Assembly (NCBI GenBank): GCA_036502545.1
Contig: DASXYH010000219.1
Span: 1-39,583, forward strand
Source: Spongiibacteraceae bacterium
Lineage (GTDB): Bacteria; Pseudomonadota; Gammaproteobacteria; Pseudomonadales; CAMLJR01
Length of the DNA: 39,583 nucleotides
Reading direction: 5' to 3'
The stretch's first letter is position 1. Every line of letters begins with the position of its first letter. This document shows, piece after piece, positions 755 to 32,866 of the stretch. Under the pieces are notes generated by a model. The model did not search any database and was not told where the DNA came from. It saw nothing but the letters and a program-made list of their open reading frames with translations. Made by a program: the position numbers and the translations under genes.

Positions 755-1840
755 ATGAGCTATTTAAGAAATACCTGGTACGTAGCCGGTTGGGATTACG
801 AGATCTCAAGAGAGATGATGGCGCGGGTGATTCTGGAGGAATCTATATTGCTGTATCGCAAGGAGGACGGCTCCGCGGTGGCGATGTCCAATAGATGCCC
901 CCACCGAATGGCCCCTTTGCAAAAAGGTAAATTGAAAGGCGATGCTGTGGAGTGCCCATATCATGGCTTGGTCTTCGACACGACGGGGCGCTGCATACAC
1001 AATCCGCACCCGCACGGCAACGGACCGATTCCGCCGGAGATGAAGCTTCGACAATACCCGGTTGTCGAGCGCGATGGCGCCATCTGGATTTGGATGGGCG
1101 ATCGGCCGGCAGATTCTTCATTGATACCCGATTACCACTGGATTTCCGCTACCGCGCATTACAGGACGACGCGGGGCGTCATTGAAATCGCCTGCAACTA
1201 TCAATCCGTCGCGGACAATCTTCTCGATTTAACTCATCTGTCGTACGTGCATCCCAGTGGGCTTGGGCCGAACCTGAACGATGTTATGAGCGAACGTCTT
1301 GAGCACGTGATCGAGAACAAGCAAGTGTGGTGCAAGCGCACGGCGAAAAATGTTCGCGCGAGTATGGATTTCCAGATGCTGAATCCCCGCATTCGCGATG
1401 TGGCGGTGGACAAAAAGCACGACGTGCGCTGGATTGCGCCCGCGCATTCACTGATCAGCGTTCATTACGTCAAAGCGGGAACCCAATCCACCGATGCGAC
1501 TGGCGCCGACATCGGTCATATGGCGACACCGATATCGCCGACTAAAACCCTAATGTTCTGGAATATTTCGCGCAATTTCTTGCTCGACAGCGCTGAAGTG
1601 GACGTACGTATGGAGCAATTTGCGCATATCGCGATTGATCACCAGGACGCGGTGATTATGGCGGAACAGCAGCGCATGATGGGAAATGAATGGGACATCA
1701 ACCGATTAAATCCCGTTTGTCTGCCCAATGACATATCGGTGAATCGGGCACGGAATATTTTGCGGCGCATGATCGATGAAGAAAACGGTGTCATTGCGAG
1801 AACTGCAGACGTGGTGAATCTGACTGCAGAGATCGATTGA
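755..1840 (+). CDS. Rieske [2Fe-2S] non-heme iron oxygenase, VanA/PAO-like alpha subunit (paralog 1)
   Basis: 361-aa ORF. Rieske ligands are CPHRMAPL...CPYHGLVF (CxH...CxxH). The mononuclear iron motif is DNLLDLTHLSYVH. The N-terminus aligns with the downstream paralog (LRNTWYVAGWDYE vs LRNIWYIAAWDYE). There is no clear SD before the ATG. Confidence 0.85.
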   Translation: MSYLRNTWYVAGWDYEISREMMARVILEESILLYRKEDGSAVAMSNRCPHRMAPLQKGKLKGDAVECPYHGLVFDTTGRCIHNPHPHGNGPIPPEMKLRQYPVVERDGAIWIWMGDRPADSSLIPDYHWISATAHYRTTRGVIEIACNYQSVADNLLDLTHLSYVHPSGLGPNLNDVMSERLEHVIENKQVWCKRTAKNVRASMDFQMLNPRIRDVAVDKKHDVRWIAPAHSLISVHYVKAGTQSTDATGADIGHMATPISPTKTLMFWNISRNFLLDSAEVDVRMEQFAHIAIDHQDAVIMAEQQRMMGNEWDINRLNPVCLPNDISVNRARNILRRMIDEENGVIARTADVVNLTAEID

Positions 1841-1878
1841 GGAAGATCGAAATTTAATTCATCGATGAGGATGTCGTT

Positions 1879-2970
1879 GTGATTGGGTTACGAAATATTT
1901 GGTACATCGCGGCATGGGATTATGAAGTTACTGAGCGCCCCGTAGAGCGCATTATTCTGGAAAAATCCGTCGTTGTTTTCCGCGCCGCGGACGGCAGCGC
2001 GAGCGTGCTCGACAATGCGTGTCCCCATCGGTTTGCGCCATTGAGCAGAGGGCGGGTCATTGCCGGCAATATCGAATGCGCTTACCACGGCCTGCGCTTC
2101 AACAGTGACGGCAAATGTATTCACAATCCTCATCCGAATGGTTGCGGACCGATTCCACCTGCGCTCTGCGTGCGGAAATATCCGGTTGTAGAACGCCACT
2201 GTGCGATCTGGGTATGGATGGGCGACAAGGTACCCGACGAGACGCTGATACCGGACTATCACTACATCGACGATACCGAAAATTACCGAACGTTTCGCGG
2301 TGTGTTCGAACTTGACAGTCATTACTGGCTGGGTTGCGACAACGCGCTCGATCTTACGCACGTCACGTATGTTCATGCCGGCGGCTTGGGCGGCGGAGCT
2401 GACAATGTCATCAATGAACGCCGAGAACTTGTGCGCGACGGCAACTCGCTGTGGTGCAAGCGCTATAACGACGACATCGTCGCCGGCCCCGATTTTCGGC
2501 GCTTCAATCCTGCGCTCAACGACATCAAGGTCGACAAACAGCAGAACGTGCGCTGGGACCCACCGGGCAACATTCTGATCGTTATCTTGTATACGAAAGC
2601 GAACGAGCCGGATGCGTGCAAGACCAGTGTCTACGCCGGCAATATGTTGTGCCCGGTCTCAGATACGAAAACTCGTTTTCACTGGAGCGTGTCGCGCGAT
2701 TTCGCACTGGATAGCGACAAGCTGGATGATGCCATGCGCGCCGTCACTGAACTTGCATTGATCAAGCAGGATAAGGCAATGATCGAAGATCAGTTGACGT
2801 TGATGGGTACGATCGATATCGATGAACTCAATCCGGTGTATATCCAAGACGATGTGCTGCCGTTGCGCGCGAAAATGACACTCGATGCGATGATCAAAAC
2901 GGAAAGCCAAGAGCGCGTTGACGAAGCGTTGAACTGGAGAACACCACACATCAGCCTTACGCCAGCTTGA
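1879..2970 (+). CDS. Rieske [2Fe-2S] non-heme iron oxygenase, VanA/PAO-like alpha subunit (paralog 2)
   Basis: 363-aa ORF with a GTG start and GAGGA 7 nt upstream. Motifs are CPHRFAPL...CAYHGLRF and DNALDLTHVTYVH. It aligns along its full length with the 755-1840 product. Confidence 0.85.
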   Translation: MIGLRNIWYIAAWDYEVTERPVERIILEKSVVVFRAADGSASVLDNACPHRFAPLSRGRVIAGNIECAYHGLRFNSDGKCIHNPHPNGCGPIPPALCVRKYPVVERHCAIWVWMGDKVPDETLIPDYHYIDDTENYRTFRGVFELDSHYWLGCDNALDLTHVTYVHAGGLGGGADNVINERRELVRDGNSLWCKRYNDDIVAGPDFRRFNPALNDIKVDKQQNVRWDPPGNILIVILYTKANEPDACKTSVYAGNMLCPVSDTKTRFHWSVSRDFALDSDKLDDAMRAVTELALIKQDKAMIEDQLTLMGTIDIDELNPVYIQDDVLPLRAKMTLDAMIKTESQERVDEALNWRTPHISLTPA

Positions 2971-3023
2971 TGCGCGGACGGAACGTCAGTCAGTCAGATC
3001 GATTTAAGACGAGGAGGAAAGTC

Positions 3024-4787
3024 ATGGAAGCGATGACAGCGTATATCGATCGCGCGCACGGCGCAGAGATACCGCGGCAAGATTTTTCCAGGCGATTTAA
3101 TCTGCCTACGGCGGCATCCGTGATCGAGGCTTTTGAACAAACGGTTTCGTCGCATCCGCATAACGGCTACACATTTCAGGACGCCAGGGGAAATGATGTT
3201 TTTTTTAAATTCCCGCGGCTCGCCGAGGAAGTCACACAATGCGCTGCGTATCTGACGCACATTGGCGGACTGTCGAAAGGCGACAGAGCGCTATTGATTA
3301 CCGAGCAACCGCAAGGTTTCGTCATCGCCTTTCTTGCATGCTTCAAGCTGGGGGTCATACCGGTTCCTCTCGCGAATGCCGACTACCTGCGCAGCGAGAG
3401 CGACCGCGAGCGGCTTTTGGAGGTGATTAAGCTGTGCCAGCCTGCCGCAATCATTTGCGATGAGAATATGCTGGAATCACTGCAGGCCGCTGTCACCGTC
3501 AATCATCTCGATATGCAGATCTGCCTGGCCTCGGCCAAATCATCTTTGCCTGTCAATTATCCTGCCATCGGCGCAGACGATACGGCTTATCTGCAATTAA
3601 CTTCCGGCACTACATCGGCGGTGAAGGCGGTCATCGCGACGCACCGCAGTCTCATTTCGAACTCGATCGGCATTATGGGCGCGACTGGTTTGCAACTGGA
3701 TACAGAAAAAGATGTGGCGGTGACGTGGCTGCCGCTATTTCACGATATGGGCGTTATCGGTTTTCTCATCTGTACCATCGTACGCGGACTGAATACGGTT
3801 TTTATGCCGACGAAACGGTTTCTCCGTCGCCCGTCGTGCTGGTTAGAAGCCTTAGTCAAATATCGCGCGAACATATCGTACGGCCCCAACTTTTCTTTTC
3901 TGCTGATCGACCGTCTTGTGAAAGAAGAAGAACTCGCGAAATTCGATCTGCGCCACGTCAAGGCTATCGGTTGCGGCGCCGAACCGATCGATCCGCGACT
4001 GATGCGACGGTTCTCTGAAAAACTGCACAAGCTCGCGCGATTGCCGCTATCCGCCGTTAAACCTTCGTATGGACTTGCAGAGAATACGCTGTGCGCCACG
4101 ATGACGCCGATCGAAGAGTCATTCCATACCGTATCGATTGACGATGAGATTTACCGAACTCAGGGACTGGTTGTCGAAACTTGCAAATCGCCGACCGCGC
4201 TCGAAGTCATAGCCTGCGGCAAGCCGATTGTGAACAGCGTCGTTGCCGTCGTCGATCATGACAGGCGGCCACTCGGACCTGGAAAAAAAGGCGAAATTGC
4301 AGTGAGCGGCAACAGTGTCGCGCGCGGATATTACAATAACTCGGCGGATACGCAAGCCGTCTTCGCCGACGGTTGGCACTATACCGGCGACGTCGGTTTC
4401 GTTCAGCGCGGATATTTATTCGTCACCGGGCGCAAGAAAGATCTCATCATTTTCAACGGCAAAAATTATGCGCCCCACGAAATCGAGTGGTGTGTCGAGC
4501 AGATCGATGGCATACGCAAGGGATCGGTCATCGCATTTCCGATTCCAGGCGAAACCCACGAGCGCATAGGTTTGTTAATTGGTTGTCGTGATTATGTCGG
4601 CGCGGATCTCGACAACGATGTGAAGCGGCGCGTTTTCAATCAGCTAAAACTCCCTGTCGATATCGTCATCGCGGTTGCCCCCAAAGATATCCCGAAAACA
4701 AGCTCTGGAAAGCTGAAACGCAACCTTGTCAAACAGCGCTTTCAAGATGGTTTTTACAATAATCTGTTGAGGAGTAGCCATGAGTGA
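3024..4787 (+). CDS. fatty acyl-AMP ligase (FAAL)-type adenylating enzyme
   Basis: AMP-binding motifs are LQLTSGTTSAVKAV, YGLAENT, YTGDVGF and GRKKDLIIFNGKNYAPHEIE; the last is typical of FAAL/FadD32-like enzymes. I prefer ATG 3024, which is preceded by GAGGAGGAAA. The in-frame alternatives are TTG 2967 and ATG 2970. Confidence 0.8.
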   Translation: MEAMTAYIDRAHGAEIPRQDFSRRFNLPTAASVIEAFEQTVSSHPHNGYTFQDARGNDVFFKFPRLAEEVTQCAAYLTHIGGLSKGDRALLITEQPQGFVIAFLACFKLGVIPVPLANADYLRSESDRERLLEVIKLCQPAAIICDENMLESLQAAVTVNHLDMQICLASAKSSLPVNYPAIGADDTAYLQLTSGTTSAVKAVIATHRSLISNSIGIMGATGLQLDTEKDVAVTWLPLFHDMGVIGFLICTIVRGLNTVFMPTKRFLRRPSCWLEALVKYRANISYGPNFSFLLIDRLVKEEELAKFDLRHVKAIGCGAEPIDPRLMRRFSEKLHKLARLPLSAVKPSYGLAENTLCATMTPIEESFHTVSIDDEIYRTQGLVVETCKSPTALEVIACGKPIVNSVVAVVDHDRRPLGPGKKGEIAVSGNSVARGYYNNSADTQAVFADGWHYTGDVGFVQRGYLFVTGRKKDLIIFNGKNYAPHEIEWCVEQIDGIRKGSVIAFPIPGETHERIGLLIGCRDYVGADLDNDVKRRVFNQLKLPVDIVIAVAPKDIPKTSSGKLKRNLVKQRFQDGFYNNLLRSSHE

Positions 4788-5058
4788 ATACGCTAGGGTA
4801 GACGCTTTCGAAATCATTAAGAGCTGCATCGCGCAATCGTTGCCCGAGCTGGCGATTGCGAATATTACCGAGGATGTCAGCTTGAGTTCGCTGGGGGTGG
4901 ATTCGATCAAGCTGGTCGAAATCAGCGTTCGCATTGAAGAGGCGTTCGGCGAAAAAGTTGTTATTGACGACTGGATTGATGAACAAATGAATCTTGATGT
5001 CGACGATCGCTACACCATTCGCTCGCTGATCGAATTCGTGGAGCTCGCTCATGCCTAG
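4780..5058 (+). CDS. stand-alone acyl carrier protein
   Basis: 92 aa and acidic. The phosphopantetheine attachment motif is LGVDSIKLVE. The start overlaps the FAAL stop by 8 nt. Confidence 0.8.
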   Translation: MSEYARVDAFEIIKSCIAQSLPELAIANITEDVSLSSLGVDSIKLVEISVRIEEAFGEKVVIDDWIDEQMNLDVDDRYTIRSLIEFVELAHA

Positions 5059-6067
5059 ATCGGATGGAAAAATTAAAATCAAAGTATTGAGCTCGTACAT
5101 CTACGAAAAAGGTGTAGGCCCGCAGGAAAATATGGGGCGCTCCAACAAGTGGTACAAGGGCTTCGTAAAAGCGCTGCTAGCACGCAATGTCGATTTGAAC
5201 AAACTGGACATAGATTTCGTCGGCCTTTCCACCGACCGGTCCGACGATTTTCGAGTCGCGCAGCGATTCGGCGAAGAAGGGGCGGCGCTGGTTATCTGTC
5301 CGGGCACGGATGCCGCTGTCCGCTGGAGCAAACAAAGTCATTCGATTCCAACGGTGTATTTTGGCGCGCACCCCGAAAACAACGGCATTGAATTGCACGA
5401 GCGCGCAAATATTTGCGGCGTTCGACTCAATTTACCGCTGATTTGGTCCCCTGCAAATTTCAAAACCGTCAAGGAACTGCTGCCGAACATAGAGCACATT
5501 TATTTTCCGCTAAATCGAGAGTCGGAATTTGTGTTCGATAATGTGCGCTCGCTCTACAAGTCATTTCGCGAAAAATCCGAAACATCGTGGATTCCGCACA
5601 ACAGCCATTACATCGGTCATCGCAGTATCACTTTTTTGTGCGAATCGATTGATTGCGAATATTTCGAAGGCCCTTACAGCGGTACTTCCGAATTAGGGAC
5701 GCTGCTTGAATCGATCAGAACGGTTGAGAAAAAGCTGATCGTCGGTTTCAACGATACAACCTTGGTTCCGGGCGCTATCGATTTGATTTCGAAATACGTT
5801 AGAGCGTACGGCGTTCCGTTGCTGTGGGTGAACAATTTTCCTGTGATTCAAGATTGCGGTGTGGCCGATTTCTCCAGCGATTTTTTTAGAGTCGGCATGT
5901 GCGTTGGCGATTTGGCGCACGCGCTGCTGTTTGAAGGCGCCACACCCAAGGACCTCGGCCTGCTGCCGGATCCAGGCCAAAAAACCGGACTGAATTTAAG
6001 TCGCTGCGCTGCGCTGAATATCGATGTCCCAGCGGCGCTCAGATCGAAATTCGATATTGCCGTCTGA
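5051..6067 (+). CDS. leaderless periplasmic-binding-protein-fold protein (resembles the ABC_sub_bind family)
   Basis: 338 aa. The pattern GFVKALL...ALVICPGTDAAV...IPTVYFGAHPENNGI...NICGV...LLPNIEHIYFP...LNLSRCAALNIDVPAAL resembles the PF04392-type substrate-binding fold from memory. I see no N-terminal signal peptide or lipobox. The start overlaps the ACP stop by 8 nt. Confidence 0.45.
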   Translation: MPRSDGKIKIKVLSSYIYEKGVGPQENMGRSNKWYKGFVKALLARNVDLNKLDIDFVGLSTDRSDDFRVAQRFGEEGAALVICPGTDAAVRWSKQSHSIPTVYFGAHPENNGIELHERANICGVRLNLPLIWSPANFKTVKELLPNIEHIYFPLNRESEFVFDNVRSLYKSFREKSETSWIPHNSHYIGHRSITFLCESIDCEYFEGPYSGTSELGTLLESIRTVEKKLIVGFNDTTLVPGAIDLISKYVRAYGVPLLWVNNFPVIQDCGVADFSSDFFRVGMCVGDLAHALLFEGATPKDLGLLPDPGQKTGLNLSRCAALNIDVPAALRSKFDIAV

Positions 6068-6098
6068 CGATTACATCAAGGTAGCGAGGGAGCTTCGT

Positions 6099-6611
6099 AT
6101 GTTCGATGAAAATATCAAGTTGCTTCCAACCGGATACCACGTCACCGCGGCGCGCATCCCTTTCGGCTTTGTCGACAGCTACGGTTATTTGTGGCATGGG
6201 CACGCGCTTCGATTTTTTGAAGACGGGCGCGCCGATACGGTGAGGGGAAGAGGGCTGACAGCAAAAGATTTTCGCGAGCTGCAACTTGCGGTGCCGATGG
6301 TGAACACACAGACCAACTATCACTCGCCCGCTTACGATGACGAGCTCATCCATATCCATACCTCGCTAAAAAAACCCGAGCTGCCGCTGCCTCGCCTTTA
6401 TTTCGATTACCGCATCACGCGGGCCAGCGACAACACGCTGCTGATCAGCGGACAAACCAAGCAGGTCATGGTGAAGGTGGAAGGAAATCGAATCATCGTG
6501 AGGACGCCAGGCGTTGTGCTCGATCGGTTGGAAAACCTTTGGCACTATCTTTCGACCGCGTGCCTTTCGACCGTTTGCAAAGACACCCACTCGTTAGCGG
6601 TAGGGGAATGA
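6099..6611 (+). CDS. 4HBT/YbgC-like hotdog acyl thioesterase
   Basis: The segment FGFVDSYGYLWHGHALRFFEDGRAD fits the D..G.v.H..y..ffE..R motif of YbgC-type thioesterases. The start is ATG 6099 after GAGGGAG; the ORF track extends upstream to 6024. Confidence 0.65.
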   Translation: MFDENIKLLPTGYHVTAARIPFGFVDSYGYLWHGHALRFFEDGRADTVRGRGLTAKDFRELQLAVPMVNTQTNYHSPAYDDELIHIHTSLKKPELPLPRLYFDYRITRASDNTLLISGQTKQVMVKVEGNRIIVRTPGVVLDRLENLWHYLSTACLSTVCKDTHSLAVGE

Positions 6612-7342
6612 CCGTGGAGCATTGGATTGTCATTCCGGTTTTAATGATCTGCGCAACGGTACAGTCGGTCTTTGGTGTCGGTGTGCTGGTGTTCGGCACA
6701 CCGAGTCTGTTGCTCGCCGGTTATTCCTTCACCGAAGTACTCAGCATTCTGCTTCCGTGTTCGCTTGTCATCAGCACTTTACAAGTCGCTGTCGGTTTTC
6801 AATATACAAAAGGGCACCGGCTTTCTTTGCCGCTAATCGTCATTCCCGGCATAGCGCTTGGCCTGTATTTCGTCACGCGGAATATGTTCAAGGATGAAAT
6901 CAAACTGATCGTTGCCGCCATGCTGCTGGTGACTGCCGTGCTGCGTGCGAGCCATATAGCCAAAGCGATGCTTGGCAAATTCATTCGCAGGCATCAAGTC
7001 GTGTATAGCGCGCTGATGGGCTTCGTTCACGGATTGTCGAATATGGGCGGCGCACTGCTGGCTGTAATGATCGCGAGCCTGCATTCGGAGAAAGAGTCTA
7101 TTCGCGCGAATATCGCCTATGGCTACCTGATATTTGGCGTTACTCAGATTTTAGTCATGTCGCAGTTGGACGCCAATTTTTTACGCAGCATCAATCTGTT
7201 TTACCCGGCGTTATGCGCGCTCGTGTTCGCCGTCGCCAACCATCTCATCTACAACAGAATCAGCAACAAACGCTATGACCCGGTGCTGACCGCTGTTATT
7301 GGTGTCTATGGGCTGAGTTTGATTTTGTTGCGCTTGATTTAA
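6608..7342 (+). CDS. TSUP (TauE/SafE) family membrane transporter
   Basis: A polytopic hydrophobic protein with Gly-rich helices (VFGVGVLVFGTP; GLSNMGGALLAV). ATG 6608 overlaps the thioesterase stop as ATGA. Confidence 0.6.
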   Translation: MTVEHWIVIPVLMICATVQSVFGVGVLVFGTPSLLLAGYSFTEVLSILLPCSLVISTLQVAVGFQYTKGHRLSLPLIVIPGIALGLYFVTRNMFKDEIKLIVAAMLLVTAVLRASHIAKAMLGKFIRRHQVVYSALMGFVHGLSNMGGALLAVMIASLHSEKESIRANIAYGYLIFGVTQILVMSQLDANFLRSINLFYPALCALVFAVANHLIYNRISNKRYDPVLTAVIGVYGLSLILLRLI

Positions 7343-7376
7343 ACGGACGCCGTTTTTGCCAATGGGGAATTGAATT

Positions 7377-7856
7377 ATGGATATACGGCGTTTCAACATG
7401 ATTGATGAAATCAGTTTTCTCGATACCAATTCCGGACACATCGAATGCCGCACCAGCGTGGCCAGCGAAGAGGAAATATTCAAGCACCATTTTCCGGCTT
7501 ATCCGGTACTTCCCGGCGCTTACCTGATCGAATCGATGGCGCAATGCTGCGCGCATTTTGTACTCGCCAAAAACAATTTTGAGCGTCTGCCCTTTCTTGT
7601 CGGCGTCGAACGCTCAAGGTTCAAATGTTTTATCGCGCCGGGCGATGAACTGGTTGTGAATGCGACAAAGACGCGGCAGCGCGGCGATTTGTATCATTTC
7701 GATGTTCAGGTCCACAGCAATAATCGGCTGAGCGCCGAAGCGCGCATCACGATGAGTTGCATGTGCTATCCCGGCGAAAGGCTGACGGATTTGTTTTTCA
7801 TTCAACGGTCGCGCACGAACATGATCGCGCTCGGCGCACTGCAAGATGCGGTTTGA
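7377..7856 (+). CDS. FabZ/FabA-like beta-hydroxyacyl-ACP dehydratase (hotdog fold)
   Basis: The active-site signature is HHFPAYPVLPGAYLIESMAQ, with the catalytic His and Glu positions in the FabZ pattern. Confidence 0.75.
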   Translation: MDIRRFNMIDEISFLDTNSGHIECRTSVASEEEIFKHHFPAYPVLPGAYLIESMAQCCAHFVLAKNNFERLPFLVGVERSRFKCFIAPGDELVVNATKTRQRGDLYHFDVQVHSNNRLSAEARITMSCMCYPGERLTDLFFIQRSRTNMIALGALQDAV

Positions 7857-7987
7857 AATAATCGACAATGGTTTTTCAAAAACGGTTTTCGACGATGGTT
7901 TTCAACGGTTTTCAACAACGGTTTCAGCGGCGCGGTTCGATGCGGCCGATCGCCAACTAAGGCCGGATCGCAAGGGAGGACAGCGGG

Positions 7988-9040
7988 ATGAATACAGATT
8001 CGATGCAACGTCTGCTCACGTCGCAGGCGCGATTGTTCGAGCACGCTCATACGGATTCGATGGAGCTAAAGCCGTTAGGCTTCAAAATCAAAAAAGAAGG
8101 ATTCAGACTGGGCGCCTATTACTGTAATCCCGATTTTTTGCTGCTGCCGTTTTCAAACTGCGAGCAGCTGGCGGCGTTCAACAAAGACCAAAAGTCGATC
8201 CTTTCGGCGTTGTTTTTCGCCTTTGCCTATGCCGAGATCGCGTCGTCCGAAACACTGGCGTTGACTTACAACATTGCCGTGGCGAAAAAAATATTCGATA
8301 TATATTCCGACGAATACATGATTCTTTTTCACGAAACCGCCGAGGAGACGGACCATATCATCACGTTCTGCGCCGTATGCAAGGGCATTCTTGGGCGCAC
8401 GGATATTGTCGGTCCGCACAATTACGGACACTTGAAGCCGGTGTACAGCGCTTTCGATGCATTTGAAAGCAAGCTTTGCAAGCACGGTTATGGCGCGATG
8501 TATTTATTCATGCGCTATCTGCTCAATCTCGCGTTAAAGCAGCTCGAAAGCTTTATGGGTCAAGGTGTCAGCGAAGAAAACCGCCATCGCGTTGCCCACG
8601 AGATTATTGTCGGACACGCCACCGACGAGGCCAGACACACCACGACGTCGCTGCAGCTTGGGTATGAGTTTTATCAACGCGCCGACAAGAGTTCGCGTGC
8701 GCTCGTCAAAAGTCTGTTGAAGCAATCGATCTACACGATGATCGATATGCGCTTCGGCAATCCCTACCAACATTACCAACATCACTTGGCGAAGCGAGTT
8801 TTGCAAGAGGCATGGAAGCGGCCCGAATTTGCCGAATCGTCGCTGCGCTTTGACGAGTTGCCTGAACTTTGGCAGCGCCAGAATCTCATCATCGAACCTT
8901 CACCGGAGTATTTGAGTTCGCAACGCTGGCTGTCGCAACAGATCGCGCGTTTGTTGGAAATGCTCGAATGCAGTTTGCCGATCCGCAACGAAAAGTTCGC
9001 AGAGTTTATCGAACTTTCAAACAGTAAATGCGCTGCATAG
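7988..9040 (+). CDS. AurF-family non-heme diiron oxygenase
   Basis: 350 aa. There are two ExxH motifs (AEETDH and TDEARH) plus spaced carboxylates (AYAEIASSE, KQLESF), as in the four-helix-bundle diiron AurF/CmlI family. GGGAGGA lies upstream of the ATG. Confidence 0.65.
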   Translation: MNTDSMQRLLTSQARLFEHAHTDSMELKPLGFKIKKEGFRLGAYYCNPDFLLLPFSNCEQLAAFNKDQKSILSALFFAFAYAEIASSETLALTYNIAVAKKIFDIYSDEYMILFHETAEETDHIITFCAVCKGILGRTDIVGPHNYGHLKPVYSAFDAFESKLCKHGYGAMYLFMRYLLNLALKQLESFMGQGVSEENRHRVAHEIIVGHATDEARHTTTSLQLGYEFYQRADKSSRALVKSLLKQSIYTMIDMRFGNPYQHYQHHLAKRVLQEAWKRPEFAESSLRFDELPELWQRQNLIIEPSPEYLSSQRWLSQQIARLLEMLECSLPIRNEKFAEFIELSNSKCAA

Positions 9041-9345
9041 GATTTGCCGTGGCCGATATCTACGAAGCTGTCGTGAACGGAATCCCCGTCCGGTTTTCTT
9101 CCGGCGAGAAATTGATCGAGCTGCACGACCGTCATTCGCTCGGGCTCGATTTCATGTGCCGGGCGGGCGCGTGCGGAGTGTGTACGGTTGTGGTCAAGGA
9201 GGGGCACGAGAATATCTCGGAGCGCACCGAGGTGGAAAACATCCTGCTGGCGATGCTGACGGACGATCAAAGCGTTCGGCTTGGCTGCCAGATCCGTCTC
9301 AATCGAGAGGCAGTGATCGAGAGCGTTGATCTCAATTTCATATGA
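9028..9345 (+). CDS. plant-type [2Fe-2S] ferredoxin
   Basis: The cluster motif is CRAGACGVCTVVV...LGCQ (Cx4Cx2C...C). ATG 9028 overlaps the AurF-like stop by 13 nt. An in-frame GTG at 9049 is an alternative start. Confidence 0.75.
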   Translation: MRCIGFAVADIYEAVVNGIPVRFSSGEKLIELHDRHSLGLDFMCRAGACGVCTVVVKEGHENISERTEVENILLAMLTDDQSVRLGCQIRLNREAVIESVDLNFI

Positions 9346-9386
9346 CATAGATATTGATAGCGTATGACAGAGGGAGAGAGCGAACC

Positions 9387-10361
9387 ATGAACGATTCATC
9401 GTTAAAAAAACCGGCATTGCCGGTAAAGTATCGACAGATTAGCTGGCTGGGATCGTCCGCGTTCTGTCTTTATAGCTACGTCTGGTTTTTTTTATTCGGG
9501 TATCTCGCCTATCTCGTTGCGCAATCGCAACTGATTTTGTCGGCCAAGATTGTGCTGGTGACGTTGCTGGTGTTTATGAGCGGCAACGGTTTGCATCTGC
9601 TTGGTTGGGCGGCTCACGAAGGAGCGCATTTCGTGCTGGTTGCCGATAAGCGCACCAATCTGCTGCTGGGCTCGTTTTTAGGCGCGGCTCTCTTTTTTCC
9701 GACGATAGGGTTTGGACTTTCGCATTGGGCACATCATCGATTTACCAATAGCGCGAAGGATCCGGACACCGCTATCCATACTAAATACCAGACTTTCTGG
9801 AAGCGCTTGTTGTTCGCGCGCGTGCACGCGAATCGGCAATATTTTAAAAATATGTTCTCGCTGTATCGAGAGGGCGAATTGAATCCGGACTTCATCACGC
9901 CTTTCAGTAAGCGCGAGTTGCGCAAGCTCGCGAATATCAATGTCGCCTTTATGGCGCTCTGGGCCTTGGCGTACATCGCAGCCGCCATCATCAATCCGCA
10001 ATTTGCCCTGTTCGCGATGATACTGCCGTTGTTGACTGTCGCGCCGACCAGTGGTCTGCGTTTGTACATCGAACACACGGCAACAGGGCAGGGAGTTTTC
10101 AAAGATTCAAGAACCTACAGCTCGCCGTTTTTCAGCGTGCTGTTGTTCGGCAATAATTATCATCTCGAACATCATTTGTATCCTACCGCCCCCTGTTATC
10201 GCCTGCCGCAGATACACCACTTTCTCAAGAGCAATGGTTATCTCGAAGAATGCGGCGATACGGTGGTTCGCGGGTTTATCCCCGCTTTGAAATACACCAA
10301 CTCGAACCACGCCTATCCGACCGGGCAGCAGGCAATGTCATCTGCGGGAGGCCAACTATGA
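9387..10361 (+). CDS. membrane-bound fatty acid desaturase family protein (three His boxes)
   Basis: The His boxes are HEGAHF, HWAHHRF and HLEHHLYP. N-terminal TM helices are present. ATG 9387 follows GAGGGAGAGAG. Confidence 0.8.
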   Translation: MNDSSLKKPALPVKYRQISWLGSSAFCLYSYVWFFLFGYLAYLVAQSQLILSAKIVLVTLLVFMSGNGLHLLGWAAHEGAHFVLVADKRTNLLLGSFLGAALFFPTIGFGLSHWAHHRFTNSAKDPDTAIHTKYQTFWKRLLFARVHANRQYFKNMFSLYREGELNPDFITPFSKRELRKLANINVAFMALWALAYIAAAIINPQFALFAMILPLLTVAPTSGLRLYIEHTATGQGVFKDSRTYSSPFFSVLLFGNNYHLEHHLYPTAPCYRLPQIHHFLKSNGYLEECGDTVVRGFIPALKYTNSNHAYPTGQQAMSSAGGQL

Positions 10362-10858
10362 ATTCAGTTGCGACCTGGTTTGGTATCGATATCCGCAATC
10401 CGAATCGTATCGTTAAAACCAGCTGGGATTTATTGCGCGGCAATCGTGCGGGGCGTTATCTGTTCGGCTGTATCGTCGGTATAGCGGCGCCCTATTCGGG
10501 CAACATCGGAGCGACTATTCTCGAACTGCGCGAGGGCTACGCACGCGTTGCCATAAAAGATAGACATAAACTGCGCAATCACCTGAAATCCATTCATGCC
10601 ATTGCGTTGGCGAATTTGGCCGAATACACGGCAAATATTGCGTTGGCATATTCGATCCCAAGCTCGGCCAGATTTATCGTGACGCGCATGTCGTCGGAAT
10701 ATTTGAAAAAAGCGCGCGGAAAAATCATTGCGGAATGCACGCTCGATGAATTGTCCGTTGCCGAAGAAATCGAAAAATCCCTTCGCGTCACACTGACCAA
10801 TGCGCAGAACGAGATCGTGGCGGTCTTTACTGTGCATTCGCTAATCAGAATGAGCTAG
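10358..10858 (+). CDS. hotdog-fold protein, DUF4442/PaaI-like putative thioesterase
   Basis: The segment APYSGNIGATILELREGYARVAIKDRHKLRNHLKSIHAIALANLAEYT...YLKKARGKIIAE matches my memory of the DUF4442 family. ATG 10358 overlaps the desaturase stop as ATGA. Confidence 0.55.
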   Translation: MNSVATWFGIDIRNPNRIVKTSWDLLRGNRAGRYLFGCIVGIAAPYSGNIGATILELREGYARVAIKDRHKLRNHLKSIHAIALANLAEYTANIALAYSIPSSARFIVTRMSSEYLKKARGKIIAECTLDELSVAEEIEKSLRVTLTNAQNEIVAVFTVHSLIRMS

Positions 10859-10941
10859 GGATAAATTCCCTCTTCCGGCGGGAGGGAGGAGAAAACCCTT
10901 TCCCTGGATGTAGCAACGCGCAAAAACAAAAGGATTCTCTG

Positions 10942-12738
10942 ATGAGTTACAAGGCGCCATTGCGCGATATCGCATTTGTCCTGCATGAGCTTTTCGATAT
11001 CGAATCGCACTACCGCAATATATTGGGTAACAACGCGCCGGACAAAGATCTTGTCTCAGCCATTATTGAAGAGTGCGCGCGGTTTTGCGAAGAGCAGCTG
11101 GCACCACTGAACGCGGTGGGCGACCGGGAAGGTTGTCGTCTCGAAGGCGAATCCGTTGTAACGCCGAGCGGATTCAAACAGGCGTATCAAAATTACAAAG
11201 ACAATGGATGGCCGGCGCTGAGCGGGCCGATCGAATTCGGTGGCCAGGGATTGCCCGATTCGTTGCGCTATATCACTACGGAAATGACGATAAGCGCCAA
11301 CCATGCCTGGAGCAATTACCCGGGCCTGACGGGTGGCGCCATAACAACTTTGTTACGTCATGGCGATAGCCGGCGGAAAGCCCAATTCCTGCCTAAGATG
11401 ATCAGCGGCGACTGGTCGGGCACGATGTGCCTGACGGAACCGCAGTGCGGATCGGACCTGGGATTGATCAGGACGTCGGCCATTCACGACGATGAATCCG
11501 ACGATAGTCGCTGTTATTTGATCACGGGCGCCAAGCTCTTTATTTCTTCCGGCGAGCACGATCTCACCGAGAATATTGTCCATATAGTTTTAGCGCGCAT
11601 TGCGGGGGCGCCAAAAGGGACCAAAGGTTTATCTCTGTTTCTGGTTCCCAAATATCTCGTCGATGAAAACGGCGGCATTGGCCGCAGAAATCGACTCTCG
11701 TGCGGCGCCGTCGAATCGAAAATGGGACTGCATGGAAATGCCACGTGCGCGATGAATTTCGACGGCGCGGTCGGCTATCTGATAGGCGATGCGAATTCCG
11801 GCTTGCAGGCCATGTTTTCATATATCAATGAATCGCGACTCGGCGTGGCATTGCACGGCCACTGCCACACCGAGGTTTCTTATCAGAACGCGCGCGAATA
11901 CGCTAAACAAAGATTGCAGATGAAGGCCGCGCATCGCACCGATTCCGCGTCCGCGCGCGACGCCGATCCGATCATTCAACACCCTGACGTGCGACGCATG
12001 CTGATGACGCAGAAAGCCTTCGCCGAGGGCGGGCGCATGCTGAATTATTTTTGTACGCTGCAGATCGACAAAAGTCAGTCACAACATCTGGATGAGACAG
12101 CGAAGGAGGAAGCGGAAAAATTGCTCGCCGTGCTGACGCCGATCGCAAAAGGTTTTCTTTCCGAAGTCAGTTTGGAAACTACCAATTATGGAATCCAGGT
12201 TTTCGGCGGACACGGATACATCGCCGATAACGGACAAGAGCAAGAATTCCGCGACGCTCGAATCACGACTATCTACGAGGGCACGACTGCGATTCAAGGG
12301 CTGGATTTGCTGGGGCGAAAAATTTTCAGCACGAATGGCGCCATATTGCAGCCGCTGCAGCGTCGGATAGGGCAGTTCATCGCCGCAAATGCCAACAACA
12401 ATTATGCAGAAATGCTGGAAGAACACGTGCGCGAATGGAATGCGCTGACACGCTGGATCGGCGCAGCGTCGGCGCGGGATGCCGATGAGGTCAATGCAGC
12501 TGCGGTGGAATACATCCTGTATTCGGGTTACGTTGTGCTGGCGTATTTTTGGGCCCAGGCCGCAGTAATCGCCGATCGACAATTAACGGGCGTTGCGGAT
12601 GACGATGCATTTTATCGTGCTAAGAAAATCACGTGCGATTTTTACTTCCGCCGGCTTATGCCTCGAACGCTGACGCTTGCCGCGGCAATCAAAAGCGGCG
12701 CAAGTGCTCTCATGGTTTTGTCCGAGAGCGATTTTTAA
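10942..12738 (+). CDS. large FadE-type acyl-CoA dehydrogenase
   Basis: 598 aa. Characteristic segments are MSYKAPLRDIAFVLHELF at the N-terminus, CLTEPQCGSDLG and IYEGTTAIQGLDLLGRK (catalytic Glu region). Confidence 0.85.
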   Translation: MSYKAPLRDIAFVLHELFDIESHYRNILGNNAPDKDLVSAIIEECARFCEEQLAPLNAVGDREGCRLEGESVVTPSGFKQAYQNYKDNGWPALSGPIEFGGQGLPDSLRYITTEMTISANHAWSNYPGLTGGAITTLLRHGDSRRKAQFLPKMISGDWSGTMCLTEPQCGSDLGLIRTSAIHDDESDDSRCYLITGAKLFISSGEHDLTENIVHIVLARIAGAPKGTKGLSLFLVPKYLVDENGGIGRRNRLSCGAVESKMGLHGNATCAMNFDGAVGYLIGDANSGLQAMFSYINESRLGVALHGHCHTEVSYQNAREYAKQRLQMKAAHRTDSASARDADPIIQHPDVRRMLMTQKAFAEGGRMLNYFCTLQIDKSQSQHLDETAKEEAEKLLAVLTPIAKGFLSEVSLETTNYGIQVFGGHGYIADNGQEQEFRDARITTIYEGTTAIQGLDLLGRKIFSTNGAILQPLQRRIGQFIAANANNNYAEMLEEHVREWNALTRWIGAASARDADEVNAAAVEYILYSGYVVLAYFWAQAAVIADRQLTGVADDDAFYRAKKITCDFYFRRLMPRTLTLAAAIKSGASALMVLSESDF

Positions 12739-12772
12739 GAAAGTGTTGATTAAGTTGGAACTTCCGACACAG

Positions 12773-14023
12773 TTACTCAGCGGCGCGAAGCGCAATTCTG
12801 CCTTTGATTGAAGGTAGTAACAGCCGCGCTAACGGCATGACAATCACAGTGCTGATGATTGCCATGACCGTCAACGCGGAAAACGCGGCCTGCGATATAA
12901 TTCCCTTCTCGAGCAGAACGGTCAGAACGACAATTTCCATCAGACCTTTTGTCTGCATCAATAGCCCGAGGCAGAGCGCGGACGACCATGCTGCACCCGT
13001 CATTACGCTGCTGATTGCCGTACCGCCGACCTTGCCGACGATGCTCAGGACTAAAGTGATCAAGAGCACTTCAGCAAACAGCGGTGAGGAAAGATCGATA
13101 AGCGTCCGCAGTCCGGTAATTGCAAAAAAGAAAGGCATTAATACGGAGACGGTTGCCGTTTCGAGTCGCGCCAATATTGATTGTTTGAGTTCGCGCGGCA
13201 TGATCACACCCGCCAGGAACGCACCGAAAATGTAATGAAGACCGATTGCCTGTGTGACCAGGCCGGATCCGATGGCACAGGCACAAGCAGCCGCCAGCGC
13301 TGTTTCGCCTTTACCATTTACAGCTCTTGGTAAAACAAAACGGATAAAGATCGGCTGCACGACCTTGATCATAAAGACAAGGTGGAGGACAAGGCCGCCA
13401 AGCATGATAAGAATTCCGAAATTCCCATTATCAACGCCATTCACCTGTGCGAGCAGCACACTGAGAAGTATCCACAACGCGGCGTCATTAAATGCGGCAA
13501 TGGCCAGCGCCTGGGTTGCCAATTTTCCACCCAGCAAATTCATTTCCCGAAGTATTGCGCCAAGCACGGGCAGCGCGGTGACAGCAGCGCAAATTCCCGT
13601 GCCTGCCGCAAAAGCGTAAGGATTCGATACGGCCCCGATGGCTTCCGGATGCCGAGCACCGATCAACAGTCCCCCGGCCGTACCGAGACATAAGGGCACC
13701 AACACACTTGCTGTTGCTATCGCAAAAAATGAGCGGCCGTGCTGCTCAAAAGCTGCATGGTCAGTATGCAACCCGGTGATAAATCCAAAAATTAGAACGG
13801 CGATCGATGCAATACCGGAAAGCGTACTTATGGAGTTGCCGTCAATGCACGCTAAAAAAAAATGTGGTGCCACGCGACCTAATAGCGAGGGACCTAGCGC
13901 GATTCCCACCAGAATTTGGATAACAACCAAAGGGATCACATTATGGAGTTTTAAAAGTTGGGCAAGTAAATAAGGAAGAGCAATTATAGTGAACGCAAGC
14001 AATAAAAAATTTAAATCCCTCAT
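12773..14023 (-). CDS. cation:proton antiporter (CPA2 / Na+-H+ exchanger family)
   Basis: 416 aa with about 12 hydrophobic helices. The N-terminus LLAQLLKLHNVIPLVVIQILVGIALGPSLLG is typical of Kef/CPA2 membrane domains. Confidence 0.75.
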   Translation of the reverse strand: MRDLNFLLLAFTIIALPYLLAQLLKLHNVIPLVVIQILVGIALGPSLLGRVAPHFFLACIDGNSISTLSGIASIAVLIFGFITGLHTDHAAFEQHGRSFFAIATASVLVPLCLGTAGGLLIGARHPEAIGAVSNPYAFAAGTGICAAVTALPVLGAILREMNLLGGKLATQALAIAAFNDAALWILLSVLLAQVNGVDNGNFGILIMLGGLVLHLVFMIKVVQPIFIRFVLPRAVNGKGETALAAACACAIGSGLVTQAIGLHYIFGAFLAGVIMPRELKQSILARLETATVSVLMPFFFAITGLRTLIDLSSPLFAEVLLITLVLSIVGKVGGTAISSVMTGAAWSSALCLGLLMQTKGLMEIVVLTVLLEKGIISQAAFSALTVMAIISTVIVMPLARLLLPSIKGRIALRAAE

Positions 14024-19743: not shown

Positions 19744-19785
19744 TATTGAAATCTGCGTGGGAGGGCGGTGCGCCAATCTAGCTAG

Positions 19786-19813
19786 CCGGACAAATTATGT
19801 CAATAATGTCCGG
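19786..19813. promoter_or_regulatory. candidate TetR operator (7-bp inverted repeat)
   Basis: The sequence is CCGGACAaattatgtcaataaTGTCCGG, in the 127-bp divergent intergenic region between the LLM gene and the TetR gene. Confidence 0.35.
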
Positions 19814-19814
19814 C

Positions 19815-19847
19815 CGGTGTTGGCTTGGCTCGGTGTTGGGCTTGACT
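19815..19847. repeat. tandem 16/17-nt direct repeat
   Basis: cggtgttggcttggct (19815-19830) is followed directly by cggtgttgggcttgact (19831-19847) and then cggt. It lies just upstream of the TetR start. Confidence 0.6.
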
Positions 19848-19870
19848 CGGTAGCGGTAATCTCCGTTAGC

Positions 19871-28138: not shown

Positions 28139-28215
<77 letters not shown>

Positions 28216-29338: not shown

Positions 29339-29586
29339 GGCGGTTGTTTATCGGTGTCGGCGTTTTCGTATTCCACAGTCACCGGTGGCGTAAAACTGCC
29401 AACAGATTCCGATTCAAAACTGCCGGCGACTTCAGTTAAAAGCAGCCACTCATCAAATTCAGCGACCTGCGGCTCTTCGGCCAAAGCCGCCGTCGGCCTA
29501 ACCATGAACTTTTGAAAACTCAATGTCTATTGTTGAGTTTCTGCATAACATCCGCGCCGTGCCGAAGTAGGGATTGATCCGACAAA

Positions 29587-31686: not shown

Positions 31687-31704
31687 CTCAGCCTCTCGTT
31701 TCCT

Positions 31705-32846: not shown

Positions 32847-32866
32847 TTCAATAGCTCCTGTGACGA

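Follow-up and report, generated by a model that had tools for sequence, protein, structure and literature searches.

A conserved bacterial gene cluster that pairs a fatty acyl-AMP ligase and a dedicated carrier protein with several iron enzymes

Introduction

A gene cluster in the DNA analysed here, a stretch of 39,583 nucleotides from a Spongiibacteraceae bacterium (the window), is a real unit, conserved in bacteria, in which a ready-made fatty acid would be directed to the cluster's own carrier protein and oxidised by several iron enzymes. Its twelve genes at 755-10858 are all found, as originally predicted, on the plus strand at the coordinates claimed for them (Table 1), and the cluster probably extends past 10858 as far as 14023, which would bring in an acyl-CoA dehydrogenase and a cation/proton antiporter. 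Comparison with the literature and databases brought up no characterised match to the gene set, in agreement with the initial impression that it matches no recognised pathway. We describe below the composition of the cluster, its recurrence in other genomes, the oxidising enzymes at its centre, and a proposed pathway together with its rivals.

Table 1. Genes of the cluster and its probable extension, with window positions, strand and principal sequence evidence.
Feature	Position	Strand	Evidence
Rieske non-haem iron oxygenase 1 (VanA/DdmC/GdmA type, alpha3 class)	755..1840	+	Rieske 5.5e-22; VanA_C 9e-35
Rieske oxygenase 2, tandem paralog of Rieske 1	1879..2970	+	Pfam Rieske and VanA_C
Fatty acyl-AMP ligase (FAAL)	2967..4787	+	AMP-binding 2.4e-57; likely start ATG 2970, TGATG overlap with Rieske 2 stop
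Dedicated acyl carrier protein (ACP)	4780..5058	+	PP-binding 6.3e-9; Ser42 in GVDSI; stop overlaps start of next gene
Leaderless periplasmic-binding-protein-fold (PBP-fold) protein	5051..6067	+	Weak ABC_sub_bind, 21.7 bits (below cut-off of 25.9 bits)
YbgC/FadM-type 4HBT hotdog thioesterase	6024..6611	+	4HBT_2 2e-7; TIGR00051 1e-11; likely start ATG 6099
TSUP/TauE-family membrane protein (possible exporter)	6539/6608-7342	+	TauE 4.8e-9
FabZ-like 3-hydroxyacyl-ACP dehydratase	7377..7856	+	FabA 3.4e-16; FabZ 2.8e-23
CylC-like ferritin-fold diiron enzyme, E/D/R clade	7988..9040	+	PF28091; weak AurF, 23.4 bits (below cut-off of 29.6 bits)
Plant-type [2Fe-2S] ferredoxin	9028..9345	+	Fer2 7.5e-10; Cx4Cx2Cx33C motif
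Membrane His-box diiron enzyme (FA_desaturase family, FADS-like; hydroxylase or desaturase)	9354..10361	+	FA_desaturase 4.2e-32; likely start ATG 9387
DUF4442 hotdog (PaaI-like) thioesterase	10250/10358-10858	+	DUF4442 5.1e-29
Acyl-CoA/ACP dehydrogenase, probable cluster member	10942..12738	+	Acyl-CoA_dh N, M, 1 and C domains
CPA2 Na+/H+-exchanger-family membrane protein, recurrent accessory	12773..14023	-	Na_H_Exchanger 1.7e-39

Results

The twelve genes are tightly packed: all five stop/start overlaps listed in the original prediction can be read in the sequence (4787/4780, 5058/5051, 9040/9028, and 6611/6608 and 10361/10358 as ATGA), and a further one, TGATG at 2968-2972, joins the second Rieske gene to the FAAL gene. 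Pfam returns each of the predicted domains, ABC_sub_bind and AurF as weak matches, and cofactor and catalytic motifs are intact across the cluster. Also as predicted, a Pfam scan of 755-10858 reveals no ketosynthase (KS), acyltransferase, condensation domain, phosphopantetheinyl transferase (PPTase), ferredoxin reductase or regulator, and, regulators aside, none of these turned up among the other ORFs of the window that were scanned. A TetR-family regulator gene lies at 19643-20509, within the window and outside the cluster. The cluster is surrounded by housekeeping genes, with a palindromic element at the 5' edge, and the source contig is part of a metagenome-assembled genome.

Co-localisation of these genes extends well beyond the window. 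The core FAAL-ACP-PBP-4HBT-diiron-ferredoxin recurs in L001, L003, L007, L008, L041, L042, L043 and L058, synteny being observed in at least eight independent loci of different lineages (Gammaproteobacteria, Myxococcota and metagenomes) at 29-58% amino-acid identity, and the same six genes occur in Cystobacter fuscus. Sulfurifustis, Lysobacteraceae and two metagenome loci have ten of the twelve genes together, in altered order, and L058, with amino-acid identities of 70-84% for the individual genes, retains the window's gene order. In other bacteria (L045-48, L050, L051, L056 and L057), the FAAL/ACP/binding-fold/thioesterase cassette has a B12-radical-SAM enzyme in the slot filled elsewhere by the diiron enzyme and ferredoxin, and this exchange points to the slot as the one at which the ACP-bound chain undergoes C-H functionalisation. 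Both forms of the cassette, the diiron (aerobic) and the B12-radical-SAM (presumably anaerobic), are widely distributed across soil and marine metagenomes, and the 4HBT thioesterase is a core member of each.

Assignment of the ligase as a FAAL rather than an ordinary CoA-forming FadD is upheld by its relatives. Its best NCBIfam match is the fatty acyl-AMP ligase PRK09192 (1.5e-116) and its top PDB match the E. coli FAAL 3PBK (8e-77), to which it aligns ungapped through the FAAL-specific insertion region, where the McyG loading domain is gapped; the next PDB matches are mostly FAALs or loading domains of the FAAL type (Legionella 3KXW, FadD32, FadD23, FadD28). The ACP has the serine expected of it, in a GVDSI motif, and in the loci compared its gene always directly precedes that of the PBP-fold protein, often with start/stop overlap; the two genes are doubled as a pair in L056, and the order ACP-PBP-4HBT is kept in all loci long enough to show it. 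The PBP-fold protein is one of 89 that make up an isolated family; about 83 of them are near-full-length (311-361 residues, at least 40% identical), while six are shorter fragments. In its AlphaFold2 model (pLDDT 90.8) strand 1 begins at residue 8, and Foldseek retrieves PF04392-type binding proteins (3LKV, 3LFT, CD0873) at TM 0.7-0.8. The predicted logic of FAAL loading onto a free-standing ACP, oxidative tailoring and hotdog-mediated release is consistent with the sequence tests.

Judged by its sequence, the central diiron enzyme is a sister, so far uncharacterised, to the diiron chlorinating enzymes of cyanobacteria and is devoid of the halogenase signature. It had been described as an AurF-type soluble diiron oxygenase, of which the diiron motifs hold and the AurF assignment does not, the AurF match being weak and the precomputed match being to the CylC-like family PF28091 (tagged 'faint' for close homologs), a family noted for diiron halogenases that depend on FAAL and ACP. 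With its AlphaFold2 model (pLDDT 90.2), Foldseek retrieves R2, R2lox and CmlI at TM 0.4-0.5. Its motifs, ETAEETDH and HATDEARH, correspond to ExxEExxH (not ExxQExxH) and HxxDExxH, and it has E119, D122 and R216 where the canonical halogenase type of 450-470 residues has Q, x and F. These three positions (Gln/Glu, x/Asp122, Phe/Arg216) co-vary perfectly over 89 CylC-like family sequences, Glu replacing the Gln of ExxQExxH in 77 of 77 clade members. Since Glu, Asp and Arg occupy the halogenase Gln, x and Phe positions, oxygenation or desaturation would be expected of this enzyme and not chlorination, the Gln-to-Glu argument being a correlative one. The ferredoxin, in turn, is above all a dedicated partner for the diiron enzyme: the two genes directly adjoin in nearly all of 40 loci, among them the loci that have neither a Rieske nor a desaturase gene. 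The original picture of four oxygenases served by a single ferredoxin goes beyond this pairing.

A second set of oxidative genes, the two Rieske genes with the FADS-like and DUF4442 genes, travels together, and the versions in Cystobacter, L041 and L043 lack it. Rieske 1 (motifs CPH...CPYH and DLTHLSYVH) has GdmA 7QWT (2.5e-62) and DdmC (1e-54) as its best solved relatives. Rieske 2 is 46% identical to it and has orthologs at 55-58% identity in L001, L007, L008 and L042, and both copies contain CxH...CxxH and DxxHxxxxH. The membrane diiron enzyme, with orthologs in the same four loci (42-44% identity), has three His boxes (HEGAH, HWAHH, HLEHH), so that its family placement stands; its label as a desaturase is too narrow, given that the nearest NCBIfam models are the hydroxylase/ketolase-type GntB, CrtR and CrtW, which score above DesA/DesB. 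Its gene is always followed on the 3' side by the DUF4442 gene in the loci compared.

The remaining genes are distributed more variably. The TSUP gene holds the same position in L041 (42% identity) and L058 (77%). The FabZ-like gene, whose product has the catalytic His and Glu motifs (HFPxxPVLPG, IESMAQ), is limited among the loci compared to the window lineage (L058). Downstream, L058 keeps the acyl dehydrogenase gene 20 nt past DUF4442 at 79% identity, and a non-orthologous ACOX-like dehydrogenase sits in the cassette of L001, L007, L008, L042 and L003. The CPA2 antiporter shares 44% identity, across the whole of its length, with the product of the gene after the L042 cassette, and in Cystobacter fuscus a CPA2-family gene lies directly 3' of the ferredoxin gene.

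Discussion

We propose that the cluster encodes a ketosynthase-free thiotemplated fatty-acid tailoring pathway, a scheme that in its proposed steps we consider about as apt to be right as wrong. FAAL, from its family features and gene adjacency, would adenylate a preformed free fatty acid for transfer to the dedicated ACP, which may act as a unit with the leaderless binding-fold protein, given their invariant adjacency, frequent start/stop overlap and joint duplication in L056. The CylC-family diiron enzyme would functionalise an unactivated C-H on the tethered chain with electrons from its own [2Fe-2S] ferredoxin, and the optional second module of two VanA-type Rieske monooxygenases, His-box hydroxylase/desaturase and DUF4442 hotdog protein could oxidise it further. 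The alpha,beta-position might be set by FabZ and/or the downstream acyl dehydrogenase, the 4HBT thioesterase would release the product, and its export may fall to the two membrane proteins, TSUP and CPA2. An oxidised fatty acid of medium or long chain length, whether hydroxy, oxo or unsaturated, is the most likely product. Against this scheme, the kinship of the Rieske enzymes with catabolic aromatic O-demethylases fits an aliphatic substrate poorly, and neither a ferredoxin reductase nor a PPTase is encoded among the ORFs of the window that were scanned.

Speaking against hydrolytic release and export in particular are the PlsC-type acyltransferase genes that adjoin the cassette or lie close to it in L003, L004, L056 and L057; in some lineages they suggest delivery into lipid instead. 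That the pathway as a whole serves membrane-lipid remodelling, an acyltransferase placing the unusual acyl chain in a membrane or envelope lipid in lieu of a secreted small molecule, is unlikely: these genes, the glycerol-3-phosphate dehydrogenase gene in L004 and the wide spread of aerobic and presumably anaerobic cassettes speak for it, but the window cluster and its ten-gene relatives (L001, L007, L008, L042) have no acyltransferase, and the cluster has two thioesterases and two transporters instead. Halogenation, in which the CylC-like enzyme would chlorinate or brominate the ACP-bound chain as CylC and NocO do and the other oxygenases would elaborate or displace the halide, openly or cryptically, is unlikely. 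The enzyme matches PF28091 and shares HxxDExxH, an HTTTS stretch and four Glu/His ligands with NocO, FAAL and ACP are the typical context of validated diiron halogenases (PMC12101540; PMC8406957), and an earlier count of 'CylC homologs' took in members of its own E-type clade from cyanobacteria (PMC8406957). Yet the Gln of ExxQExxH, described as halogenase-specific (PMC13519999) and needed by NocO, whose Q128A mutant is inactive (PMC12101540), is the very residue replaced throughout the clade together with the co-varying Asp122 and Arg216; the clade profile matches canonical halogenases only at E 1e-15 to 1e-5, and the Pfam match is a faint one.

Rather improbable is a catabolic operon for an exogenous alkyl- or methoxy-aryl carboxylic acid, which would be taken up by TSUP, activated, O-demethylated or hydroxylated by the Rieske enzymes, and degraded in steps resembling beta-oxidation by the dehydrogenase, FabZ as a hydratase, and the thioesterases. 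The guaiacol and dicamba O-demethylases nearest to the Rieske pair, the acyl dehydrogenase and hydratase-fold protein, the binding of aromatic amino acids by the structures closest to the PBP-fold protein, and the neighbouring housekeeping genes would all suit it, but here it is a FAAL and not a CoA ligase that carries out the activation, onto a dedicated ACP, and the Pfam scan found no thiolase, 3-hydroxyacyl dehydrogenase or ring-cleavage enzyme. Moreover, the Rieske module is optional and the ACP-PBP-thioesterase core invariant, and this core pairs with CylC-like or B12-radical-SAM enzymes, as is typical of biosynthesis. Chance juxtaposition of unrelated genes or mis-assembly, for which the metagenomic origin of the contig and the 5' palindromic element might be invoked, has a negligible probability and is effectively ruled out by synteny: the genes recur jointly in the independent loci described above, five junctions are translationally coupled, and gene order in L058 is identical.

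The tailoring pathway proposed here has precedents. The cluster had been singled out for having no chain-building enzyme, and this absence is borne out, though it is no anomaly: KS-free thiotemplated fatty-acid tailoring is already established for bacterial polyynes (PMC9828172), JamABC/TtuABC (PMC8341276) and CylABC/NocLMO (PMC12101540), and the polyyne pathways, JamABC and CylABC, like the cluster here, have no chain-building enzyme. Orphan clusters with a CylC homolog and Rieske proteins have also been catalogued earlier (PMC8406957).

Gene content and limits of the cluster

The source contig is part of a Spongiibacteraceae metagenome-assembled genome, and an ORF scan places 12 plus-strand genes within 755-10858 of the window, where Pfam and NCBIfam searches found every domain named in the original prediction (see table). 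The five stop/start overlaps first described are all real in the sequence, a sixth (TGATG) lies at 2968-2972, and the cofactor and catalytic motifs of the encoded proteins are all intact. Because a CPA2 Na+/H+-exchanger gene and an acyl-CoA-dehydrogenase-family gene recur at relative loci, which were reached by tracing homologues of the diiron protein to their contigs, the limits of the cluster are probably 755-14023. Full-length identity is 44% between the exchanger and that encoded after the cassette in the metagenomic locus L042, and the exchanger family is also found after the cassette in Cystobacter fuscus Cbf 10. The recurrent dehydrogenase-family gene is ACOX-like and within the cassette at four loci, and nearby in Cystobacter; the window dehydrogenase is retained in the close relative L058, 20 nt past the DUF4442 gene and at 79% identity, and its orthology to the ACOX-like gene was ruled out by an identity of 32% across just 111 residues. 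The remaining ORFs scanned in the window are those of an ordinary chromosome (mod genes, SDR, LLM oxidoreductase, TetR regulator, MFS transporters, thrS-infC-pheST, tRNA-Pro and an integrase remnant), with no PPTase or ferredoxin reductase among them, and promoter and terminator scans gave site numbers not above those of shuffled sequence.

Features of the window and of relative loci (cluster domains assigned with Pfam and NCBIfam)
Feature	Position	Strand	Remark
Two Rieske oxygenases		+	VanA-type
FAAL		+	more plausible ATG at 2970
Free-standing ACP		+	
ABC_sub_bind-like protein	5051-6067	+	weak match; PBP-fold protein
4HBT thioesterase		+	YbgC/FadM-type; more plausible ATG at 6099
TauE/TSUP membrane protein	6608-7342	+	
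FabZ-like dehydratase	7377-7856	+	
AurF-like protein	7988-9040	+	weak match; diiron enzyme
2Fe-2S ferredoxin	9028-9345	+	
FA_desaturase-family His-box protein	9354-10361	+	more plausible ATG at 9387
DUF4442 hotdog protein	10358-10858	+	
Acyl-CoA dehydrogenase	10942-12738		probable part of cluster
CPA2 Na+/H+ exchanger	12773-14023		probable part of cluster
Interrupted palindrome, outer repeats	143-166/394-417		
Interrupted palindrome, inner repeats	194-223/328-357		30 nt, 97% complementary
GGTTTTC(A/G)A imperfect repeats	7873-7924		four to five copies
tRNA-Pro(GGG)	28139-28215		
Tyrosine integrase, catalytic part	33195-33950	-	
Tyrosine integrase, Arm-DNA-binding part	33976-34485	-	
PlsC-type gene, L003 (Cystobacter)	20758-21083		beside or near cassette
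PlsC-type gene, L004	4600-6276		beside or near cassette
PlsC-type gene, L056	13163-13813		beside or near cassette
PlsC-type gene, L057	8590-9282		beside or near cassette
TSUP/TauE gene, L041	3856-4584		
More distant diiron-clade cluster, L004	8069-18838		

Recurrence of the cassette

Were the cluster a chance juxtaposition, homologues would lie apart in other genomes; the gene set is instead co-localised in relatives, and the finding therefore stands. L058 has the exact gene order of the window, TauE and FabZ included, with proteins 70-84% identical gene by gene. Ten of the 12 genes, in a different order and at 32-58% identity, are present in two metagenomic loci (L001, L042) and in Sulfurifustis (L007) and Lysobacteraceae (L008) metagenome-assembled genomes, where two Rieske, His-box, DUF4442, alpha/beta-hydrolase and ACOX-like dehydrogenase genes accompany a six-gene core of FAAL, ACP, PBP-fold protein, 4HBT thioesterase, diiron enzyme and ferredoxin. 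The Rieske, His-box and DUF4442 genes are an optional module, and the core stands without it in Cystobacter fuscus Cbf 10 (L003/L009), L041 and L043. Close relatives of the diiron gene occur in only 3 of 185,579 species-representative genomes. Cystobacter fuscus Cbf 10 is the sole isolate found with the core cassette and makes the question open to experiment. Literature searches found no characterised match to the gene set, which the original prediction had not recognised either, nor to DUF4442 or a FAAL accompanied by a B12-radical-SAM enzyme.

Predicted activation and tethering of the acyl chain

By sequence the FAAL has the features of a true FAAL and not those of an ordinary CoA-forming FadD. 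Its top solved relative is the E. coli FAAL 3PBK (8e-77), most further matches in the PDB are to other FAALs or to loading domains of FAAL type (Legionella 3KXW, FadD32, FadD23, FadD28), and the alignment with 3PBK runs ungapped over query residues ~360-410, past the YGLAE motif, the site of the FAAL-specific insertion, a region in which the McyG loading domain, unlike 3PBK, is gapped. The features of the class are thus all present, namely the N-terminal-domain insertion, FAAL relatives and an adjoining carrier-protein gene, which overlaps the FAAL stop codon and whose product keeps the functional-site serine in GVDSI. Identity of the FAAL and presence of the ACP serine together support the loading model.

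The product of the gene after the ACP is, as first proposed, a binding-protein-fold protein without a leader: in its predicted model (pLDDT 90.8) strand 1 of the fold starts at residue 8, and PF04392-type solute-binding proteins are matched at TM 0.7-0.8. The family is isolated, comprising 89 proteins, six of them shorter fragments and ~83 near-full-length (311-361 aa, with identities of at least 40%). Its gene always comes just after that of the ACP, often with a stop/start overlap, and L056 has two copies, each behind an 88-aa ACP-sized gene (PP-binding confirmed for only one). From this invariant order, frequent overlap and duplication as a pair, we infer that the PBP-fold protein is a stoichiometric partner of the ACP.

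A diiron enzyme with a distinct signature

The label “AurF-type” originally given to the diiron enzyme does not hold, its score against Pfam AurF being 23.4 bits for a gathering cut-off of 29.6, and its precomputed Pfam family is PF28091, named CylC-like. An arylamine N-oxygenase of the AurF/CmlI kind (PF11583) is rejected on that score; PDB sequence and profile searches found neither AurF nor CmlI, detected no related solved structure, and turned up no diiron halogenase structure. The AF2 model (pLDDT 90.2) has as top Foldseek matches the ferritin-like proteins R2, R2lox and CmlI, all loose (TM 0.4-0.54, E>1e-3), and predicts a ferritin-like four-helix-bundle dimetal fold.

As an enzyme class, the diiron halogenases are young, and only a few members have been studied. 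CylC and NocO chlorinate FAAL-loaded, ACP-bound acyl chains with electrons from ferredoxin; nine residues in QExxH and HxxDExxH motifs are defined as essential, and the Q128A variant of NocO is inactive (PMC12101540). The Gln of ExxQExxH is described as halogenase-specific (PMC13519999). The window enzyme has Glu at this position (E116-T-A-E119-E120-T-D-H123), along with an HxxDExxH motif (H210-A-T-D213-E214-A-R-H217), E88 and E187, all of them aligned and invariant. In an alignment of 89 full-length family members, 77 have Glu119 and Asp122 with Arg (74), Lys or Gln at 216, two have Asp119, Asp122 and Arg216, and the ten canonical-type members, mostly of 427-470 aa, have Gln119, a residue other than Asp at 122, and Phe216; the three positions co-vary perfectly across the 89 sequences. 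Just 49 clusters came out of an exhaustive profile search across 1.84 billion representatives. The profile of this E/D/R clade (Glu119/Asp122/Arg216) is matched by canonical halogenases only at E 1e-15 to 1e-5. Because Glu replaces Gln, and does so with covarying positions, the enzyme is not filed as a halogenase, and membership of the ordinary CylC type is rejected; its sequence places it in a clade sister to the diiron halogenases. Genomic context, that of FAAL and ACP, points to a putative ACP-bound substrate. The second-sphere switch of three residues, from Q/x/F to E/D/R, amounts to a natural experiment on what makes a diiron centre halogenate a substrate or else oxygenate or desaturate it.

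L004 contains a clade member that is more distant, 37% identical and with its own ferredoxin, among genes for an arylsulfotransferase, FAAL, P450, ACP, carbamoyltransferase and MBOAT, a different, lipid-like orphan cluster. The cyanobacterial members, proteins of 432 aa encoded in L006 and at some 25 loci of Nostoc (L010-L040), also carry Glu instead of Gln in the halogenase motif, and nearly all are encoded next to a ferredoxin. In L006, the one locus annotated, this pair has as further neighbours PUFA-synthase genes of PfaA/C/D-like type, an ACP and a condensation-domain protein.

The ferredoxin and the other oxygenases

A single 2Fe-2S ferredoxin, as first noted, is encoded in the cluster, but the idea that it serves four oxygenases needs qualifying: of 40 loci examined, nearly all have the ferredoxin gene directly adjoining the diiron gene, among them cyanobacterial loci near Pfa-type PKS genes and loci lacking any Rieske or His-box enzyme, and so it is primarily the partner of the diiron enzyme. 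The two Rieske proteins are paralogs (46% identical) with the CxH/CxxH ligands, DxxHxxxxH mononuclear iron site and VanA_C domain of the VanA/DdmC type, and are nearest to the aromatic O-demethylases GdmA (7QWT, 2.5e-62) and DdmC. For the membrane enzyme, its place among His-box FA_desaturase-family proteins stands, but the designation “desaturase” is not established, since it scores best with GntB, CrtR and CrtW models and not with DesA/DesB. It is the only PF00487 protein of the cluster, which thus lacks the desaturase/acetylenase triad of the polyyne type.

A presumably oxygen-independent version

At eight loci (L045-L048, L050, L051, L056 and, in a Thermoanaerobaculia metagenome-assembled genome, L057) the FAAL, ACP, PBP-fold and 4HBT genes of the cassette are accompanied not by diiron and ferredoxin genes but by one for a B12-binding radical-SAM enzyme of 550-590 aa, with 52-64% identity among its orthologs; L056 has two genes of this type, only one orthologous to that of L050. 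Because the radical-SAM enzyme stands in place of diiron enzyme and ferredoxin in the same cassette, the slot for radical C-H functionalisation can be filled by either of two catalysts, one O2-dependent and one O2-independent, and this swap is the strongest indirect evidence for action on the ACP-bound chain. The ACP-PBP pair together with the swap would define a portable cassette modifying unactivated fatty-acid carbons. A bolder proposal, to which we give perhaps one chance in several, is that the E/D/R clade makes up a separate family of C-H functionalising enzymes that do not halogenate and to which an obligate PBP-fold partner without a leader presents the ACP-bound acyl chains; if true, one and the same step would be carried out with O2 by diiron enzyme plus ferredoxin and without it by the B12-radical-SAM enzyme, and soil and marine bacteria would make a widespread modified fatty acid (or lipid). 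Three features merit follow-up: this swap, the pairing of ACP with PBP-fold protein, and the E/D/R residues of the diiron enzyme.

Comparison with known systems

The reported absence of a chain-building enzyme is upheld but is not anomalous, because polyynes, JamABC/TtuABC and CylABC/NocLMO share the logic of the cluster. The MbtM/MbtL/MbtN system for the mycobactin lipid tail is comparable: its ACP is charged by the FAAL, its acyl-CoA-dehydrogenase-family enzyme introduces a double bond into the tethered chain, and an acyltransferase moves this chain to the siderophore lysine. MbtM is among the NCBIfam matches of the window FAAL (1.1e-62), and the window lacks an acceptor system of this kind. 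Bacterial polyynes need only FAAL, ACP, desaturases, electron carrier and thioesterase, and their core (cay/pgn), which yields a free modified fatty acid, resembles the cluster in its lack of a ketosynthase and in combining a FAAL and a designated ACP with a thioesterase, O2-dependent membrane desaturases and a small iron-sulfur electron carrier (PMC9828172). It relies, however, on a desaturase triad and rubredoxin, whereas the window has one hydroxylase-like His-box enzyme and a 2Fe-2S ferredoxin, in addition to Rieske and CylC-like enzymes, a PBP-fold protein, and hotdog instead of alpha/beta thioesterases. The terminal-alkyne cassettes JamABC and TtuABC, the latter from a Cellvibrionales gammaproteobacterium, likewise combine acyl-ACP ligase, ACP and a membrane His-box desaturase acting on the ACP-bound chain but, unlike the window cluster, are three-gene units feeding PKS/NRPS (PMC8341276).

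Also close in logic are the cyanobacterial CylA/CylB/CylC and NocL/NocM/NocO, where a FAAL loads a free-standing ACP, as proposed here, and a ferritin-fold diiron enzyme of the same PF28091 family, sharing HxxDExxH and all Glu/His ligands, acts on the tethered chain with ferredoxin electrons (PMC12101540, PMC8406957). The window enzyme differs in having ExxEExxH, not ExxQExxH, with the covarying Asp122 and Arg216, in being ~100 aa shorter and in its dedicated ferredoxin gene; its cluster has no downstream PKS or CylK, and the hosts are proteobacteria and one myxobacterium, not cyanobacteria. “Rieske-containing” orphan clusters with a CylC homologue, a few of them proteobacterial, were catalogued in 2021 (Eusebio et al., PMC8406957) as having one such homologue together with a membrane diiron oxygenase, 2-4 Rieske proteins and [2Fe-2S] proteins, and the window, with two Rieske genes and a single CylC-like gene, conforms to this. 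It differs from them in its activating and carrier proteins, FAAL and ACP being core components here and lacking from the published description, and in its membrane enzyme, of PF00487 FA_desaturase and not of the sterol-desaturase/FA-hydroxylase family; neither Cystobacter nor gammaproteobacterial members are listed in the supplements of that study.

Proposed route and alternatives

The observation behind the original prediction is confirmed and its interpretation partly supported, the best-supported reading being a KS-free thiotemplated tailoring route. The cluster has what a polyyne-type cassette of this kind comprises: FAAL, designated ACP, O2-dependent iron enzymes, electron carrier and thioesterase, with no KS. 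In such a route, whose chemical steps are all read from the demonstrated domain identities, motifs and synteny, the FAAL would load the ACP with a fatty acid and the diiron enzyme, with its ferredoxin, would oxidise an unactivated carbon. The Rieske and His-box enzymes may contribute further oxidations, FabZ and/or the dehydrogenase could act at C2-C3, and the 4HBT thioesterase would free the product, for which TSUP and CPA2 are possible exporters.

True halogenation of the acyl chain is one rival to this scheme, but the Gln signature is absent from the diiron enzyme, and the E/D/R signature favours oxygenation or desaturation over chlorination as its putative activity. The modified chain might instead be delivered into membrane lipids, as hinted at by the PlsC-type acyltransferase genes beside or near the cassette in L003, L004, L056 and L057, although the window has no such gene. 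A catabolic role would suit the O-demethylase-like character of the Rieske enzymes. The KS-free tailoring route is preferred to all three.

The PlsC-type domain of Cystobacter forms a fusion with an AMP-binding one. Transporters of the TSUP/TauE family act on sulfite and organosulfonates; TSUP/TauE genes lie in both the window and L041, a sulfotransferase accompanies the related diiron gene in L004, and a sulfur-containing product is conceivable.

Other features of the window

Beyond tRNA-Pro a lower-GC stretch begins, followed after ~5-6 kb by a tyrosine integrase split over two ORFs; a search for an att-like repeat of the tRNA 3′ end found none, and 28139-34485 may be a degraded island. The largest gap within the cluster, the 131 nt between the FabZ-like and diiron genes, contains the GGTTTTC repeats, for which the close relative L058 shows no conservation. 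Directly upstream of the cluster lies an interrupted palindrome of ~270 nt (143-417), whose DNA fold of -75 kcal/mol has a z of -10.2 against shuffles; a MITE-like element is one possible explanation, an assembly artefact at the contig end another.
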